A stretch of DNA of 41,252 nt. Origin: a virus. The notes under the pieces are model-generated. The model was not told where the DNA came from and did not search any database. It saw nothing but the letters and a program-made list of their open reading frames with translations. Each line of letters begins with the position of its first letter. The first letter of the stretch is position 1. Location: IMG/VR virus record IMGVR_UViG_3300045988_175715; one strand, 5' to 3'. Both the position numbers and the translations under genes were made by a program. This document shows positions 31,995 to 41,252 of the stretch, piece by piece.

Positions 31995-32233
31995 TTGGTT
32001 ATCCTCTCTGTTTAAGCGGCCTTGCGGCCGATGTTAATTAAGTCGTTAAGGTGCCACAAGGCAGCAGATGGTCGAAGACAAGTAAGTTAAATGTTTCGGT
32101 GTAAAGCACTGGGCGAACGACGAAGGCAAGTTAATTGAGTTTGCCGAAGCGAGCCGTTAGGCGAGCCCTGCTGTCAAGAAAAAAGTGTTAATTGAGCTCA
32201 AAAAACCACTTCGTAGGAAAAATCGTAACGCAC

Positions 32234-32320
32234 GTCCAGTCGGTAATTAAGTTAAAAGTTGGTCAATGTACTCGGATTTTGAATACCTTGAGCAAAAAAT
32301 AACTTAATTACCGACTGGAC
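32234..32320. repeat. Perfect 20-bp inverted repeat with a 47-nt spacer. It could form a large stem-loop or act as a protein-binding site.
   Basis: gtccagtcggtaattaagtt (32234-32253) is the exact reverse complement of aacttaattaccgactggac (32301-32320). Iteron-like repeats tagacaaaa x2 and the inverted repeat ttgcac/gtgcaa follow at 32340-32400. Confidence 0.8.
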
Positions 32321-32458
32321 AGCCCAGTAATTTCAAAGTTAGACAAAATTTGCACCATTCTAGACAAAAATTTTCCATCTAAATTGAGTGCAAATTTGGG
32401 AGTTAAGTAACTTGTTATGTTAAGTAAGCTGTAAAGCCGAAGCTGAAGCGAAGCAGGC

Positions 32459-33109
32459 TTAAAGGTCCAAGTCGTTGTCAATTAAGTCTGCCATCTTAAG
32501 CACCTTCTGGGAAAAACTAGCTTCGTCGGTGGTAACCGACAGAGCTTTAATGAACATCTTTAAGTTAGTTTTTTGTGCTTGAACCTGCTTGGCTCGCTGT
32601 TTACGCCGCTCAATTAACTCTCTTTCCGCTAAGCTAGCTCGGTGCTCGGCGCGTGCACGTAATCGGGCTCTTTGTTCCGCTTCAAACTGCTTGATTCGCA
32701 AGCTTCGATTAGCCGTTTCGGTGGTTAGTTTGTCAATTAAGTTCGATAGAATAGCCGGGGCTGTTTGCGGGTTTTCACTCAATTTAGGTTCATTTACGCC
32801 GCTGGCGGCCGAATCTGCTAACAATTTAATGTAGTCAATGATAGTCAAGCGGGGCAAGTGTTGCAAAACAGCAGAATAACCTGATCGGATTTTATCAGCG
32901 GTGTCGATTGAGCAATCAATTAAGGTAAACAAGCCAAGCAAGGCGGATTTTTCGGGCGGTAAATCAGCAAGTGTAACAATATGACAATCGGTGATGACAT
33001 ATTCAGCGAGGGCGGAAAAATCGGTAAGGGTAAATTGAGATAGCGTTTTAAGCCGGGGTTTTTGAAAAGCGTTTAGATTGTAATAGATGGTTGTGTTTAA
33101 GTTTGTCAT
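32459..33109 (-). CDS. Early protein of 216 aa with a basic helix and an acidic ...DNDLDL C-terminus
   Basis: ORF with ribosome-binding site AAGGA. Confidence 0.45.
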   Translation of the reverse strand: MTNLNTTIYYNLNAFQKPRLKTLSQFTLTDFSALAEYVITDCHIVTLADLPPEKSALLGLFTLIDCSIDTADKIRSGYSAVLQHLPRLTIIDYIKLLADSAASGVNEPKLSENPQTAPAILSNLIDKLTTETANRSLRIKQFEAEQRARLRARAEHRASLAERELIERRKQRAKQVQAQKTNLKMFIKALSVTTDEASFSQKVLKMADLIDNDLDL

Positions 33110-33216
33110 TTCATTGAATCCTTAATGTGATTGTGTGTGATTGTAATGTGATAGTTTAATTAAGTGATAGTATTTAGTTAGATATTACTAGTAAAGGTTG
33201 TAGCTTAGAGCAAGAA

Positions 33217-33240
33217 AGAGGGGCTCAAGCAAGCCCCTCT
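33217..33240 (-). terminator. Intrinsic terminator or attenuator on the minus strand
   Basis: agaggggct-caagca-agcccctct has a perfect 9-bp stem. It is followed on the minus strand by uuucuugcucu. Confidence 0.5.
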
Positions 33241-33256
33241 AATCGTTAGCAAGCAA

Positions 33257-34000
33257 TTAGATGTCTAAGTCATCTTCATCAATACTTGTTTCAACCTTAC
33301 GGTCAATTGCTTTTGCCGCAAGCGCAACAGCGTATCCGATATAGTCATCAGGCGTAAAAGTTACCCCGTGTGCAAAATTAACCGCATTAGGTGATTGCTT
33401 TTCACAATGCCATTTAATCAACGCACGGATATAATCAGCAACAGCAACGCTCTTACCTTTTACTTGAGTTTGGCCTAAAATCAAATTTGCTGTTTGCAAG
33501 TCAGCTAAAAACGTCTTAATTGTCTTCTCATTAATCAAGCTAGCTTTTGCCGGCATGTTGGCTTTTAAGCTAACTACCAAAGCCTTAACCAGGGCATTGA
33601 AAGGTTTCGACAAGGGATTCGCTTGAGCGTTGCCGCCGTTCTGCGGCGTGAGTATGTCGACAATATTATTGAGGTTAGGCAGGGTTAAAAGCTTGCGGAT
33701 GTAGTTACTTAAAAAGTACTTTTCCACAAACTCACGGCAAATGTCATTAAGTCCAGCGACTTCCATAACGTCCGGAATATTTGTATACAATACATCGTAT
33801 TTGCCCTGCTTATCTTTTATCAAGCGGCAAGATAATTGACGGTTGGAAAATCCATCAATAACCCTAACAGCGACGCTTTTAGCCGGTTCACCGGCAACAG
33901 CGGCAACTAGGTTACCATTGTCATCGGCGGTTACCTTAACCGCCTCACTAGCGCCGATTTTATTAAGTGCTTGTAAAAATTCTTCCGTTTCCATTTTCAA
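33257..34000 (-). CDS. Early protein of 247 aa with an acidic ...DEDDLDI C-terminus
   Basis: ORF with ribosome-binding site AAAGGA. Confidence 0.45.
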   Translation of the reverse strand: MKMETEEFLQALNKIGASEAVKVTADDNGNLVAAVAGEPAKSVAVRVIDGFSNRQLSCRLIKDKQGKYDVLYTNIPDVMEVAGLNDICREFVEKYFLSNYIRKLLTLPNLNNIVDILTPQNGGNAQANPLSKPFNALVKALVVSLKANMPAKASLINEKTIKTFLADLQTANLILGQTQVKGKSVAVADYIRALIKWHCEKQSPNAVNFAHGVTFTPDDYIGYAVALAAKAIDRKVETSIDEDDLDI

Positions 34001-34119: not shown

Positions 34120-34437
34120 TTATCCGTGTTGTCGTAACCATTCCTTCAAGTCATGCCACAAGTATGTAGGAATATCAGCAGGATTATTCTGATATTGCAA
34201 TAATCTAGCTATAACCTCGATTAAGTTACTTGTCACGGCGTCAACGGAATCAACACTTTTTGTGTCGTCGTCAATCTGTAATGCTGAAAAGTCGTCGTAA
34301 ATCAAAATTGTTTTGCCGCCGCGGTTAAATTTATGCACTGCCGCCGATTCGACAAAATCAGCAAAAAACCGCGGCAAATAGTTACTTGTCTTTCTTATCT
34401 CAAGCAAAGCGCTAGCAAGGGAGTAGTATTTTGTCAT
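34120..34437 (-). CDS. First leftward early protein, 105 aa
   Basis: Ribosome-binding site GAAAGGAAAG. It lies directly downstream of a consensus promoter. Confidence 0.45.
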   Translation of the reverse strand: MTKYYSLASALLEIRKTSNYLPRFFADFVESAAVHKFNRGGKTILIYDDFSALQIDDDTKSVDSVDAVTSNLIEVIARLLQYQNNPADIPTYLWHDLKEWLRQHG

Positions 34438-34472
34438 CTTCTTTCCTTTCTCAGTTTGTTTAATATAAGGGT

Positions 34473-34501
34473 ATTTTACAGGACTTTGCTTTTATTGTCA
34501 A
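34473..34501 (-). promoter_or_regulatory. Leftward early sigma70 promoter. TTGACA, 17-nt spacer, TAAAAT.
   Basis: Minus strand reads tttgTTGACAataaaagcaaagtcctgTAAAATaccc, about 35 nt upstream of the 34437 start. Confidence 0.7.
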
Positions 34502-34941
34502 ACAAAAACTACATTAGAATACCAAAAAATTTTGCCTTGTGCAAAAGGGGCTATAGCACCCCAAAGACAAGTGAAGGGCTGCGGCGTATATAAATGTACC
34601 CTCAGCAAATTCGCAAGAAAATTGGCATTTCCAGCCGGCTGATGCTTAATTGACACGTGAATCTGCATTAACTGCGTTAGCAGCTTCGAGGGCCGGTTTC
34701 CAGTTGGGTGCTAATTAGCTTCACAAGTCAATTAACTCCAAAGTGGTCAGAGCGGCTTGCCGCGAAACTCGAGTAACCGGCTTAACCGGACTTCGCTTGA
34801 AGCTAATGAACCTTTGAGGCCGCTTTCTGGTTGTGAAGCTAATTGACTTCGGCTGGTCAGCCGCTGCTTGTCAGCGCCTCGAATTACCAGAAGTAGTTGC
34901 TTAATAGTATATTGACTATAGTAATTGCAGTAGCTGCCCTG

Positions 34942-34970
34942 TTGACATTTGCTGGATTATTTGGTAAGCT
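34942..34970 (+). promoter_or_regulatory. Rightward sigma70-like promoter. TTGACA, 17-nt spacer, TAAGCT.
   Basis: ttgacatttgctggattatttggtaagct shares the TTGACATTT...ATTATTTGGTA architecture with the promoter at 10023. The -10 element is weaker. Confidence 0.5.
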
Positions 34971-34994
34971 AGCTAAAATAGGAGGAATCAAGCA

Positions 34995-35903
34995 ATGACT
35001 TTAATCAATGAAGAATCAAGTGACGAGGCCACGAGCCGCAAAACCACTAGGGTGTTACTGGCCAAAATGAGTGCTGGGGCGCTAATGGCCTTTTGTGAGT
35101 TACTTGAGCGGGGTGACCTGGAGCAGGGCGATGAACTTGTCTATGTCAATTTGGGCTTCGAATGGCCAGAACAGGAGCAGGCCGCTGAAGCGCTCAAGGC
35201 AATTTGCAAGGAGAAGTTAATTAAGTTCACTGAGCTGCAAGGCCACCTTGAGTATGAGATGCTACACAAGTCAATCGAAAAACTCTATAGGCCAAGAGAT
35301 GCTTCACGGAATCTCCAGTGGCAGGGCTTTGTGCAGCGGTTGCAGCGGGGCCGCGGCTGGTGTGGAGGTAAATTGAGATGGGGTGAGTCAATTAAGTGGC
35401 TACTCATAAACCGGTACCTCAAGGAGCAGTACTTGAAGAAAGCTGCTCAGGAGCAGCTAGAACTGCACTTAATTTTCGGCTGTACCACAGAGCGCTCTGC
35501 TGAGCTGACTCGAAGCCGCCTTTCGGTGCCGGTGCTCAGGAACTTCAAGTTAATTAACCCCAACATCGCCAAGGGCCGCAGCAAGGCTTATTGCGTAGAG
35601 TGGTTAAGTAGGAAGGGCTGGGCAATAGGGCGGCTTTACACGGCGGGCTTAATTAAGCCAGGGTGCTGGTGCTGCCGCAGCAGGAACATCAAGGAGCTTA
35701 AGTTGATTAAACAAGAGTGGCCCGAAATTTGGCAGAAGCTCCATGAACTTGAGAAGTTAATTAAGGAACCTTACTACAGGACGCCTCGAGGCTGGGCGCT
35801 GCTTCAAGATGTTAATTACAAGGCCACAAAATTCACCTTAAGTAACACAAGCAACAAGGATAATAAGGCCAATAGTAGAAAGGGCAAGAAAGATGGAAAG
35901 TAA
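34995..35903 (+). CDS. Cys-containing hypothetical protein of 302 aa, upstream of terminase. Function unknown.
   Basis: Ribosome-binding site AGGAGG. Motifs GRGWCGG and GCWCCRSR are present. No methyltransferase, HNH or PAPS-reductase hallmarks were recognised. Confidence 0.45.
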   Translation: MTLINEESSDEATSRKTTRVLLAKMSAGALMAFCELLERGDLEQGDELVYVNLGFEWPEQEQAAEALKAICKEKLIKFTELQGHLEYEMLHKSIEKLYRPRDASRNLQWQGFVQRLQRGRGWCGGKLRWGESIKWLLINRYLKEQYLKKAAQEQLELHLIFGCTTERSAELTRSRLSVPVLRNFKLINPNIAKGRSKAYCVEWLSRKGWAIGRLYTAGLIKPGCWCCRSRNIKELKLIKQEWPEIWQKLHELEKLIKEPYYRTPRGWALLQDVNYKATKFTLSNTSNKDNKANSRKGKKDGK

Positions 35904-36711
35904 TGAAAACAGTAATGTTGAAAATGCTAATGTGAACGAAGTGAACACCGGCGGAAGCATTTGGCAATCACTTAACTCAGGGGCGCGGAGTAAGTTGGTG
36001 CAGTTAATTAACTCCGGAATGCCCACCGCAATGATGGCTGACTTTTTGAACCTCGAACCTAATCAGCTTGCTGAACTCTTGGAAGTTCCTGAGCTTAAAC
36101 AGTTAATTGCCCAGCAGGAAGCAGCTGAGCGCCTGAACTCGGCTGACGCCTCAAGCAAGTGGGACGAAGTCGAGGTGCTAGCTTTGAAGAATGTCCTCGG
36201 GGAACTTAATTCACGGCCAGACCCGGTTTTCGCCCTCAAGGCTGCGGCGGTTGCAAATAAGGCAATTAGGTCGCATAAAGGCAAGCAACAGGCTATGCAG
36301 CAGCTGGTCGAGGGAGCTAAGACTATCACGTTGCAGCTTAATCAGCAGGTCGTCAATGCACTGGTAAATGCGGGGCCAGTGGCGGGGCCGATAGCTCAAT
36401 TAGCACCAGCTGTGCCAAGTAGCTCGGGTAGCTCAGGTGCCGCCAGTAAAGTCCTTGATGTATTCACCGCTAAGGATATGGAGCGACTTGCTCGAGGCGG
36501 CTCTGAGATAGAAGCTTTCTTTGAGCCTGTTCAGCAAGCCGAGGAAACGAGCCCGGCCGGCATTGAGATGCTCAAGCAAGTTGACGACTTAATTGACTTG
36601 CCATCAAGCGCCACCGGAGCAGCTGGAACAGCCGGAGAATCCAGAGAAGTCAGAGAAGCTAAATTTGATAGTACAACAATTAAAGCAGCCGGAGGCGAAC
36701 ATGTTATATGA
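35893..36711 (+). CDS. Putative terminase small subunit
   Basis: An N-terminal helix-turn-helix-like segment (SKLVQLINSGMPTAMMADFLNL) is the sequence basis. The gene lies immediately upstream of the large terminase gene and overlaps it. Confidence 0.4.
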   Translation: MESNENSNVENANVNEVNTGGSIWQSLNSGARSKLVQLINSGMPTAMMADFLNLEPNQLAELLEVPELKQLIAQQEAAERLNSADASSKWDEVEVLALKNVLGELNSRPDPVFALKAAAVANKAIRSHKGKQQAMQQLVEGAKTITLQLNQQVVNALVNAGPVAGPIAQLAPAVPSSSGSSGAASKVLDVFTAKDMERLARGGSEIEAFFEPVQQAEETSPAGIEMLKQVDDLIDLPSSATGAAGTAGESREVREAKFDSTTIKAAGGEHVI

Positions 36712-38188
36712 AGTTAATGCACAAGAATTGCGGCAGACGCTACTTAGCAGTGAAGCCGCCTATATACAATTTGCTTTGGGCGCTCAAGCAGGTGATGACC
36801 TCTTGCCCACGCCGGAGTTCCACTTGCAGATGTTCCGGCTTTTTATTGATGAGTCAATTAAGAGGGTCTGTGTTGCTTGCCCACGGTCGCACGCCAAGAC
36901 CACGATTGCCAAAATAGCTGTTAGCAGGTTAATTCACGGTGCCACTTCAGACATGAACATTGGGTATCTGAGCCACAGTAGCCCGCTTGCCACAAAGGCC
37001 CTAATGGACATCCGGAACTTAATTTGCTCTGAATCCATGATGGCGGCTTTTGGAGTACCCCAGTTCATTAAAGAACAACTCGATAGGGGCGAATACAGTT
37101 TTGAACTTAATGGCCACACATTCAACATGAGTAGCTTTGGTGCAAACAGCCAAATTCGAGGCTACAATGTTAATAACCGCCGAATTGACGTGCTGTTAGT
37201 TGACGACCTCGAAGACCGTAAAGAGAATGAATCCGAAGTCCTCTTTGACAAGCTCAAGCGCTGGTTCTTCTCCGACTGCATCAAGGCGCTGAGCCCCAAG
37301 GGTCGGTTAATTATGTTGGGCAACATCGTCAACAGGAACAGCATAGTCAACGAGAATTGTGCGAGCCCGAAATGGGCGTCAATTAAGTTGAGTGCTCTCA
37401 AGCAAGACGGCACGCCTTTGTGGCCAGAGCTTAACAGCTTCGCTGACCTCATAGCTGAATATAATGAGTATGCCAGTAAGGGCTTAGCTGGGCAGTGGTG
37501 CGCCGAAATGCTTAATGACCCCATGGCCGCAAATACACTGTCAATTGACTTGCAACGCATAACCAGGAGCCCCAAAGTTGACCCAGAGTCAAGTGAGCAC
37601 GAATATGGATTCATCACAATTGACCCGGCAATCAGCCAAGCGGCCTGGGGACACGCGCAGACAATGGCCGTCCATTGCTACTACGAAACCCCGGCGCCCC
37701 ATTGGCAGATAGTCGACTCAAGGGTAGCTTATGGAGAATCACCAGTTGCTTTGTACGCCGCAATGCAGGATATGTGCAGTAAGTGGAATGTCTCAATTGT
37801 GGGCTTCGAGGCCGAAGCGTATCAAGCATCTCTGAAATCGATGTTCGAGTACATGGACTCAGTGAATGATAGTAGCGGTTTAATTGACTACGTCCCGCTA
37901 AAAACGCTCAAGAAGAGTAAAGCATCTAGAATAAAATCTTTTGTTGACTTACTTTACCAAGGCGTATATCATTTAAGTGATAATGATAATTTAACCATTA
38001 CTCAGCTACTTGCCTTTGACCCGACGCGCAAAGACAATTCAGATGACTTAATTGACGTAGAGGCCTATGGCTGCCAGATGCTTGAGCTGCACCTTGAGAA
38101 AATCAAACAGGCCAAAAATCGGAAGTTAAGTAAGTCCGGATACTCAAGTGAGTTGTTACAGCGAATCGCAGCGGCAAGTAGTTTATAA
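36701..38188 (+). CDS. Terminase large subunit
   Basis: ATG at 36701 has ribosome-binding site GGAGG. The P-loop is VCVACPRSHAKTT and Walker B is LLVDDLED. C-terminal acidic motifs of an RNase-H-like nuclease are ITIDPA, VGFEAEAY and LIDVEAYG. Confidence 0.7.
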   Translation: MLYEVNAQELRQTLLSSEAAYIQFALGAQAGDDLLPTPEFHLQMFRLFIDESIKRVCVACPRSHAKTTIAKIAVSRLIHGATSDMNIGYLSHSSPLATKALMDIRNLICSESMMAAFGVPQFIKEQLDRGEYSFELNGHTFNMSSFGANSQIRGYNVNNRRIDVLLVDDLEDRKENESEVLFDKLKRWFFSDCIKALSPKGRLIMLGNIVNRNSIVNENCASPKWASIKLSALKQDGTPLWPELNSFADLIAEYNEYASKGLAGQWCAEMLNDPMAANTLSIDLQRITRSPKVDPESSEHEYGFITIDPAISQAAWGHAQTMAVHCYYETPAPHWQIVDSRVAYGESPVALYAAMQDMCSKWNVSIVGFEAEAYQASLKSMFEYMDSVNDSSGLIDYVPLKTLKKSKASRIKSFVDLLYQGVYHLSDNDNLTITQLLAFDPTRKDNSDDLIDVEAYGCQMLELHLEKIKQAKNRKLSKSGYSSELLQRIAAASSL

Positions 38189-40836: not shown

Positions 40837-41252
40837 ATGATTCCAGGAATCTTTTCATCTCAGGGAGGTATCAATGCCGAGCGGCTTGATAGCTTCAATA
40901 GTAAATTGTTCCGGTCCCAGCTGGCCGGTACTGCCCCGATATTCTCATTGAGTTCGGGTGCCGCTCAGTTTCAGCTGACTTCGAAAATCCACTACTGGTT
41001 CATGAAGCAGCCGTATAGCTCGAAGTTAATTGCCTCGGCGGCAGCAAACAACTCGGCAACTTCCATCACTGTGGACAAAGGTGCTGTGGTTGAGCCGTCT
41101 TCGGTGATTATGAACACTAAGACTAATGAATATATGTTCGTTAGCGCCGTGTCAGGCAACACCCTGACTGTCGTTCGTGGCTTTGCTGAATCGACGGCCG
41201 CCGCAGTAACTCAGAATGACGAACTGCTTTACTTGGGTACTGCCAAAAAAGA
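40837..41252 (+). CDS. Major capsid protein, 5' portion. It continues in frame across the circular junction into 1..855; the whole gene is about 383 aa.
   Basis: ATG at 40837 is preceded by AAGGAG. The reading frame is open to the window end. 41134 minus 40837 is 297 nt, so this portion is in frame with the ORF at 1..855. It sits directly after portal and scaffold, and a strong terminator follows the gene cluster. Confidence 0.6.
   Translation, partial: MIPGIFSSQGGINAERLDSFNSKLFRSQLAGTAPIFSLSSGAAQFQLTSKIHYWFMKQPYSSKLIASAAANNSATSITVDKGAVVEPSSVIMNTKTNEYMFVSAVSGNTLTVVRGFAESTAAAVTQNDELLYLGTAKK

Follow-up and report, generated by a model that had tools for sequence, protein, structure and literature searches.

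A probable divergent early/late control region with one conserved module in a group of podovirus-like gut phages

The control region and its conserved part

The window analysed here is a stretch of 41,252 nucleotides, IMG/VR virus record IMGVR_UViG_3300045988_175715, which holds the complete genome of a podovirus-like phage from human-gut metagenomes. The subject is a gap of 557 bp (34438–34994) that runs from a minus-strand ATG at 34437 to a plus-strand ATG at 34995. This gap is probably a divergent early/late control region that acts as protein-bound DNA. A leftward early/replication block and a rightward packaging/structural block flank it, which makes 34438–34994 the divergence point of the two genome halves. 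Across seven related lineages only the promoters, by position, and one module of ~80 bp, here called block A (34547–34623), persist. The module would be the recognition site of one or more sequence-specific proteins, and the lineage-specific repeats beside it would be accessory protein-binding sites.

An earlier note on this DNA had described a GC-rich, palindrome-dense control region between the early and structural operons that could hold an origin, a packaging site, operator sites or a structured non-coding RNA. Its proposal of a divergent control region agrees with the flanking gene blocks and with the position-conserved promoters of all seven lineages. However, it did not single out the module, which is the conserved part, and the features that it listed are not those that are conserved. 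The duplication, complement and palindromes occur in one species-level group only and vary inside it through recombination and indels. As the sole non-promoter cis element kept in seven lineages, the module is the place to seek an origin, a packaging site or an early/late switch. If a role can be assigned to it, the module would offer a handle for engineering and tracking these phages, by way of plasmid origin or pac vectors and of terminus-aware assembly. Regions of this kind are ordinary, the phage group is new, and the module is worth following together with a genome-wide palindromic box that also occurs in the gap.

Relatives and assemblies

The gene adjoining the gap recovered 16 IMG/VR contigs, and a pattern scan added further contigs from human-gut metagenomes. 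The close group defined in this way contains 24 distinct versions of the gap, with a neighbouring protein that is 86–99% identical and genomes that are otherwise ~90% identical. Protein searches yielded six distant lineages in which the gene order is kept (L034, L035, L038, L072, L081 and L082), which together with the window's own group make up the seven lineages compared. In the distant lineages the neighbouring proteins are 32–50% identical to those of the window, the GC content is 36–42% and the gaps measure 229–477 bp. The pattern scan of metagenome contigs returned the close group and chance matches only, a scan of the genome collection returned chance matches only, and none of 50,697 phage records matched the region in blastn. 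The duplication was tested against 1000 shuffles, and folding z-scores are relative to dinucleotide shuffles. An attachment site (attP) was considered and rejected, as Pfam and PHROG scans of the larger open reading frames (ORFs) found no integrase and the region had no match in 185,579 species-representative genomes.

The assemblies are all circularly permuted, and that of the window carries an overlap of 119 nt, in which positions 1–119 are an exact repeat of 41134–41252 within the capsid gene. This end repeat is an artefact of circular assembly, and the unique genome length is therefore 41,133 bp. Contig ends were also considered as genome termini, as 7 of the 16 IMG/VR contigs end 0.9–4.4 kb left of the gap. 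This candidate was rejected because five contig ends in fetched loci lie at differing hypervariable or tandem-repeat positions, which marks them as assembly breaks. The ends are scattered over 30.6–34.1 kb and none coincides with the gap. An early intergenic gap at 33110–33256 (L002 1–110) holds tandem (gtttgcttgc)n in relatives, and the clustering of ends left of the control region arises because several IMG/VR contigs break there or at other hypervariable early sites.

Promoters at the gap edges

Three features lie at the edges of the gap.

34473–34501, minus strand: early (leftward) sigma-70-type promoter, with -35 TTGACA at 34501–34496, a 17-nt spacer and -10 TAAAAT at 34478–34473; called by the promoter scan with 11/12 matches
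34517–34535: AATACC box and A6T4 tract upstream of the early -35, resembling an UP element
34942–34970, plus strand: late (rightward) promoter, with -35 TTGACA at 34942–34947, a 17-nt spacer ending in TGG and -10 TAAGCT at 34965–34970; read from the sequence

The two outward-facing -35/-10 pairs, whose positions are conserved in relatives, describe a putative divergent sigma-70-type region. The consensus leftward promoter proposed in the earlier note was found again by the promoter scan and is predicted to drive the first early gene (ATG 34437). An early -35 (TTGACA or TTGCAA) can be read at the equivalent place in the close relatives and in L034, L035, L072, L081 and L082. The promoter scan made no early-promoter call in L034, L072 or L035, and TTGCAA-17-TAGAAT of L038 is the only early equivalent that it called in a distant lineage.

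The proposed rightward promoter stands in part. Its -35 is perfect, the TGG before its -10 forms an extended -10, and the whole is unchanged in 24/24 close variants. It is followed by a Shine-Dalgarno sequence, AGGAGG, at 34980–34985, 9 nt before the ATG at 34995. The -10 itself is weak, retaining T1, A2 and T6 but matching at only 3/6 positions, and for this reason the promoter scan makes no call there. Late equivalents were called by the scan in L034 (TTGACT-16-TACAAT), L072 (TTGACA-17-TAGCAT) and L038 (TTGACA-17-TATGCT). The two promoters provide predicted transcription starts for both genome halves of this uncultured gut-phage group.

The AATACC/A6T4 element, GAATACCAAAA, is present in all 24 close variants. 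Its AATACC box and a GGTATT at 34470 belong to an imperfect inverted repeat that brackets the early promoter (34470–34487 / 34506–34523). In the distant lineages the corresponding place has GGTATT with a T-run after it, in reversed orientation. As the ~440 bp between the two -35 boxes lie upstream of both outward promoters, this stretch is transcribed by neither of them.

The conserved module

Block A consists of four consecutive elements.

34547–34562: GC dyad GGGG-CTATAGCA-CCCC, the first element of the module
34563–34586: GC-rich spacer, 24 nt here and 23–25 nt elsewhere, variable in sequence and fixed in length
34587–34595: invariant TATATAAAT, found once in the genome
34596–34623: conserved tail ..TC..C.AA....CAAGAAAATT, containing invariant alignment columns

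The general layout is thus a GC dyad, 23–25 bp, TAT(A/T)TAAAT and a conserved tail, and the whole module is single-copy in the window genome. Alignments place a GGG...CCC dyad with a 4–8-nt centre in all 7 lineages. The TATATAAAT 9-mer is identical in 24/24 close variants and in 6/7 lineages; L081 carries TATTTAAAT instead, inside the perfect 10-bp palindrome TATTTAAATA. In the tail, the columns ..TC..C.A.....CAA.AA are invariant across the seven lineages. Between the module and the early -35 lie 45–107 nt, depending on the lineage, and between it and the late -35 ~5 to ~320 nt. Since the internal spacing is fixed while these distances vary, the module behaves as a self-contained unit. The shortest of these arrangements is seen in L034, where the gap is 229 bp and block A directly abuts the late -35.

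Short repeats accompany the module in some lineages. GACAAA/TTTGTC lies within 60 nt upstream of the dyad in L035 (3 of the 4 copies in the locus), L081 (3/3) and L082 (4/7), where 0.04–0.14 copies are expected. These iterons occupy 4990–5017 in L035, 2700–2745 in L081 and 2724–2782 in L082, and their orientation flips between lineages. The same stretch of L038, and of L038 alone, holds a perfect DnaA box, TGTGGATAA, at ~1060–1070. On the minus strand of the window, TTGCGA (34616–34611) lies exactly 17 nt from TTATAT (34593–34588), which gives block A a promoter-like geometry toward the early genes, together with a weak hairpin and T-tail.

Block A was sought in phages PaMx41, EBPR podovirus 3, Aeromonas P5 and Polaromonas Tiera, and nothing convincing was found. 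Several simple identities for it were rejected. It occurs once in the genome and so is not a repeated phage-specific promoter. A trans-acting small RNA was discarded because no consistent target turned up in any lineage for its variable 5' part, the best duplexes reaching only extreme-value level at non-homologous places. A leader peptide was discarded because its ATG, within TATATAAATG, is absent in L034.

Possible roles of the module

Three roles for the module, as an origin, a packaging site or a promoter/operator, fit about equally and can overlap, with an origin narrowly first. Block A may tentatively be regarded as an origin-type element. This first choice rests on short repeats, a dyad and an AT box that lie between divergent promoters where the replication operon begins, in the manner of the ori of lactococcal phage c2. 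A number of observations weigh against it. The AT box is 9 bp long and flanked by GC-rich DNA, which is short for an unwinding element, and the window has no exact GACAAA iteron beside the dyad. Cumulative GC skew rises through the gap without inflection, and the change of sign in AT skew follows gene orientation. No origin-binding initiator was identified among the early proteins. A second gap at 31995–32458, with a structure-conserved inverted repeat, is an equally good origin candidate. The nucleotide invariance of TATATAAAT and the tail is more suggestive of specific recognition, for instance at a pac or cleavage site, than of mere AT-richness. The broader control-region explanation also leaves the 50-nt core of the close group (34733–34782) unaccounted for, and the functional roles given to the gap elements are predicted from sequence alone.

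A packaging role, in which block A is a pac site or a terminal-repeat/concatemer-junction signal for terminase and the nearby repeats are sites for the small subunit TerS, is rather doubtful. It would explain a single-copy module that heads the operon of the 302-aa gene, TerS and the large subunit TerL, with the late operon starting 0.4 kb and terS (35893–36711) 1.3 kb downstream of it. The N-terminal helix-turn-helix (HTH) segment of TerS, [SA]xMP[TML]xxM[AS]D[FY]L, is highly conserved in the seven lineages, which fits an invariant DNA site. The circularly permuted assemblies and the 119-nt overlap fit terminal redundancy, and terminally redundant genome ends are reported for phage Shea, a distant architectural relative (PMC13348215). 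In PaMx41, the gap at the equivalent position has CTAATCCTGG in ~3 tandem copies. However, in all lineages the 302-aa gene stands between the region and terS, L081 as the sole carrier of a changed 9-mer shows no matching change in the TerS HTH, and the contig ends at 30.6–34.1 kb, at hypervariable or tandem-repeat sites, are not at the gap. An internal promoter in the early direction, with its operator and attenuator in block A, is unlikely. On the minus strand it would comprise an A/T-rich stretch, TTGCGA, 17 nt, TTATAT(A), a GC-rich discriminator, ~20 nt, the GGGG/CCCC hairpin and a T-rich tail. This would be a second, upstream early promoter comparable to A2c/A2b of phage phi29, with the spacer and dyad as operators and either a terminated ~45-nt RNA or a read-through leader as its product. 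In the window, L034, L035, L038 and L072 the spacing between a TTG and TTATAT is exactly 17 nt, as is that between TTG and TTAAAT in L081, and these inspected lineages have a GC-rich discriminator and A/T-rich DNA upstream. Variation within the close group falls in the mid-spacer and discriminator, sparing the TTG and the 9-mer, and a terminator scan independently calls the dyad and tail as terminator-like, in the early direction, in L035 and L072. The same hairpin of 4–6 bp fails the terminator criteria in the window, and the putative RNAs of ~45–65 nt fold like shuffles (z -0.4 to +0.5), with a variable 5' 'seed' that finds no consistent target in any lineage. Moreover, no hexamer of TATATAAAT on either strand has both A2 and T6, as a canonical -10 would, so the promoter scan never calls block A, and the 9-mer is far more conserved than the true -10 boxes of these regions.

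Lineage-specific repeats and palindromes

The rest of the gap, blocks B and C (34625–34935), contains the repeats and palindromes to which the earlier note had drawn attention, among other elements.

34628–34655, plus strand: weak third repeat copy, TTTCCAG..GCTTAATTGAC, 71% identical to 34697–34717 and ending in the genome-wide box
34684–34722, plus strand: repeat copy 1, holding the 10-bp palindrome GCTAATTAGC at 34710–34719; core in 22/24 close variants
34733–34782: 50-nt core, near-invariant in the close group only (21/24), including GCGG-CTTG-CCGC at 34752–34763
34812–34850, plus strand: repeat copy 2, holding the box GCTAATTGAC; core in 16/24 close variants
34850–34878: two overlapping GC hairpin-type repeats, CGGCTG-gt-CAGCCG and (GC)CGCTG-cttgt-CAGCG

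The duplicated element, described as about 30 bp, is real and longer than proposed at ~40 bp, with 30/40 positions matching between 34684–34722 and 34812–34850. Its local alignment score of 26 compares with 15.1 +/- 2.1 for the shuffles and exceeds all 1000 of them. Together with the weak third copy (34628–34648, with the box TAATTGAC at 34647), there are three diverged copies of a 25–40-bp element at spacings of 69 and 127 bp. No tandem repeat array is present in the gap of the window. The long-range complement likewise extends further than the 12 bp first noticed, to 14 nt with perfect arms at 34713–34726 and 34831–34844. An inverted repeat of this length is reached by ~0.4% of shuffles, and the perfect complement is kept in 3/24 close variants.

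The palindromes and base composition were described too strongly. All four small palindromes are present (34632–41, 34752–63, 34777–89 and 34850–63), but only the first is uninterrupted, the other three having arms of 4–6 bp and spacers of 2–5 nt. Among the 24 variants cagccggctg is kept in 3, ccggcttaaccgg in 5 and cggctggtcagccg in 6. Palindrome density is weakly raised, with 33 arms of at least 4 bp where shuffles have 19.4 +/- 5.5 (p ~0.02) and 9 arms of at least 5 bp where they have 5.1 +/- 3.0 (p = 0.13), and 12% of equal-sized windows of the genome hold as many palindromes as the gap. A GC content above the genome average applies to the core at 34680–34880 (53.2%, the 97th percentile of 200-nt windows), whereas the whole gap, at 43.3%, lies below the genome at 45.5%.

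The earlier note had proposed that loss of the repeats in relatives, or a conserved ORF there, would count against its reading. The repeats are kept within the close group and none is found in the six distant lineages. No conserved ORF was found in relatives; the best 'family' of small ORFs occurs in 17/28 gaps, with inconsistent lengths and in no distant lineage. The 50-nt core is absent from the distant lineages as well, and it displays no covariation because its sequence hardly varies. In the hairpin-type repeats at 34850–34878, relatives contain one compensatory C:G to T:A change. L049 and L068 carry the loop in flipped form (ccaag in place of cttgg) and L005 has a comparable flipped version (tcaag), which indicates an inverted repeat at the DNA level.

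Blocks B and C could possibly be mostly tolerated, recombination-prone spacer that gathers boxes, tandem arrays and GC mini-hairpins. The close-group gap is a recombining mosaic in which modules are present or absent, with indels of ~10–100 bp, tandem 9-mers and 7-mers in some strains and inversions of loops, all among 24 genomes that are ~90% identical. The 229-bp gap of L034, in which block A and the late -35 adjoin, also fits a dispensable filler. This explanation is countered by the near-invariance of the 50-nt core in 21/24 variants and by the retention of both repeat copies in most of them. In addition, the gap is conserved to a degree that equals or exceeds that of the adjacent early gene.

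DNA or RNA

A structured RNA had been among the options for this region. In this case, the core at 34680–34880 would fold into a rod-like non-coding RNA or a 5' leader of the late transcript, with the 14-nt complement as its central helix. Such an RNA is very improbable, and comparison with relatives argues that this reading is largely refuted. In the minimum-free-energy fold of 34525–34995 the complement does form a long helix, the apex of the rod is where relatives have their variable inserts, and several relatives hold 10 pairs through G-U wobbles that are possible on the plus strand only. One compensatory change is also seen in the GYCGCTG/CAGCGRC hairpin. However, the folding z-scores for 34525–34995 are -1.38 (plus strand) and -0.82 (minus strand), block A of the distant lineages likewise stays within the range of shuffles, and a search of the whole window against Rfam gave no match at gathering scores and, at E <= 10, chance matches only (E >= 0.35). 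RNAalifold covariation terms are -0.29 and +0.6 kcal/mol for blocks B and C, with one compensated pair each. At the variable position of the long helix, G-C, G-U, A-C and A-U occur at roughly chance frequencies.

Conservation points the same way, as the complement is perfect in so few close variants and the entire core is missing from the six related lineages. The promoter/terminator scan found neither kind of element inside 34502–34941 of the window, a stretch upstream of both flanking promoters, and the flipped loops indicate inverted repeats in DNA. A search of the window for transfer RNA-like sequences and transfer-messenger RNA gave no result. The eye-catching palindromes are thus not those of an RNA gene.

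The genome-wide palindromic box

The box that ends the weak repeat copy belongs to a set found throughout the genome, in both orientations and in coding as well as non-coding DNA, with the consensus a-S-T-Y-AATT-R-A-S-t (for example at 2496, 3500, 5774, 34647, 34727, 34840, 36590 and 38049). STYAATTRAS has 83 copies, against 17.8 +/- 2.3 after synonymous-codon shuffling, and AATTAA is over-represented 6.7-fold in the genome. The version TAATTGAC alone has 40 copies in the 41-kb window, far above expectation for any 8-mer, while ACTTAATTGAC appears 14 times and AGTTAATTAAC 13 times. Leu-Ile is encoded by TTA-ATT in 79/126 cases (63%), where 14% is expected. The box is therefore selected at the DNA level and kept at synonymous sites.

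The gap contains three TAATTGAC boxes, and both orientations are represented. Every copy of a palindromic box is complementary to every other, which provides a simpler cause for the long-range complement, and in most relatives the longest inverted repeat of the gap is a box pair. The duplication, complement and palindromes of the gap are largely built of STYAATTRAS copies. Other lineages have palindromes of their own: the hyper-abundant one of L034 is CTA(C/G)TAG and sister lineages carry others. Elsewhere in the genome, an AATT-containing box such as aggtaattgagATG follows the Shine-Dalgarno sequence and precedes the start codon in 12/31 genes, among them those with starts at 1244, 2162, 5795, 10088, 10913 and 18782, and the box thus also belongs to many translation-initiation regions.

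DNA uptake sequences and the stoperators of cluster-A mycobacteriophages are hyper-abundant short motifs that are non-palindromic. The STYAATTRAS box resembles these and HIP1, the highly iterated palindrome of cyanobacteria (PMC5861425), as a short over-represented motif present in coding DNA in both orientations and under synonymous-site selection. It differs from all three in its sequence and in its setting, a 41-kb phage, and it is palindromic unlike uptake sequences and stoperators.

The gap boxes (GCTAATTAGC and the three TAATTGAC) could be the local face of a genome-wide system in which a dimeric protein of the phage or host binds ~80–230 STYAATTRAS copies, although this is quite improbable. 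In such a phage 'highly iterated palindrome' system, which might serve in genome coating, silencing, self-marking or episome maintenance, the control region would act as a node of nucleation or regulation, and block A would be the system's unique cis-acting module, for origin or packaging. The analysis identified neither a binding protein nor a methyltransferase for the box. A lineage-specific iterated palindrome at synonymous sites is possibly the more surprising result of this analysis, and it would make the purpose of highly iterated palindromes testable in a genome of 41 kb.

Comparison with known systems

The region shares no sequence with the control region of phi29, the ori of c2, the pac of SPP1 or the cos of lambda, and the likenesses are of arrangement. 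The central early/late control region of Bacillus phage phi29 contains the promoters A2c, A2b and A3 and binding sites for p4 and p6, and A3 lacks a consensus -35. Both regions are compact and non-coding, lie where early and late operons diverge, serve a single late operon and hold protein-binding inverted repeats between promoters, predicted ones in the window; tandem early-direction promoters may be a further shared feature. In contrast to phi29, both promoters of the window have a consensus -35, and the conserved module has no phi29 counterpart.

The ori of lactococcal phage c2 is a non-coding region between divergent early and late clusters, proven by plasmid replication assays, and is transcript-dependent. 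The window resembles it in location between divergent operons, in non-coding DNA rich in repeats and palindromes and in an internal promoter-like element. The two share no sequence similarity and the AT box of the window is 9 bp. Unlike phi29 and c2, the window is known only as sequence.

Among packaging systems, SPP1 has pacL-pacC-pacR upstream of and inside gene 1, lambda has cosB/cosN upstream of Nu1, and T7 has a terminal repeat rich in short repeats. The window shares with these a unique cis site heading the terminase operon, short repeats at its flanks and a near-palindromic core, which is the perfect TATTTAAATA in L081. It differs in the additional 302-aa gene before terS, in the lack of sequence similarity and in being known from assemblies.

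The nearest cultured phages are those of the Pseudomonas 119X/PaP2/PaMx41 group (Fredfastierviridae), whose TerL is 27% identical. PaMx41 (Jamesmcgillvirus) has the same genome architecture, in which a Dda-like helicase and PolA belong to a leftward early/replication arm and a protein of ~1800 aa ends the rightward TerS-TerL-portal arm. It also has a non-coding gap of ~350 bp, between gp04 and the small terminase gene, with short CTAAT-containing tandem repeats. Besides the low TerL identity, it differs in that no block A homologue and no genome-wide TTAATT-type box were found in it.

Genome context and neighbouring genes

The phage is a lytic, podovirus-like gut phage of a group without a cultured member. 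Plus-strand genes run from 34995 to the window end and continue from the window start to 18632. They encode, in order, the 302-aa protein, TerS, TerL, a portal-sized protein, an SU10-type capsid protein and a 1775-aa protein. The capsid gene (383 aa) starts at 40837 and spans the assembly junction. The TerS candidate (35893–36711) has a weak HTH match to the small terminase of PaMx41, and TerL (36593–38188) matches phrog_38 with E = 2.5e-49. As listed, the TerL ORF begins at a TTG at 36593 and overlaps the TerS ORF by 119 nt (36593–36711); the real start probably lies further downstream.

The first late gene (34995–35903), which lies between the gap and terS in all seven lineages, encodes the 302-aa protein, a PAPS-reductase/PP-loop family member with a degenerate nucleotide-binding motif and conserved GWCGG and GCWCCR motifs. 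A profile of the family matches PDB chain 21fy_C ('PptA') with E = 1.9e-6, and the protein may be a DNA-modification enzyme.

Minus-strand genes run from 34437 to 18782 and form the early/replication block, with a Dda-like helicase, PolA, a DUF3987-type primase, a Sak4-like protein and a PD-(D/E)XK exonuclease among their products. The second non-coding gap, at 31995–32458, lies upstream of the Dda-like helicase gene and contains a perfect 20-bp inverted repeat (32234–32253 / 32301–32320) with a 47-nt loop, and two TAGACAAAA boxes at 32340 and 32361. A long inverted repeat is found at the equivalent place in the three lineages examined, L034 (4237–4448), L035 (2845–3136) and L072 (5427–5780). 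The sequences of these repeats differ while the architecture is kept, with an A-run and a T-run at the flanks. Candidate functions of the element are those of an RNase III site, a bidirectional terminator and an origin.

A 245-aa early protein (33257–34000, minus strand) had no family match, and its predicted structure was of too low confidence to be used (pLDDT 59.5, pTM 0.37). It is 37–49% identical in the four lineages compared (L034, L035, L038 and L072, in the last as protein P0065), where its gene is always directly left of the gap or one small ORF away. This protein and that encoded at 32459–33109, also on the minus strand, have acidic C-termini, ...DEDDLDI and ...DNDLDL, respectively.

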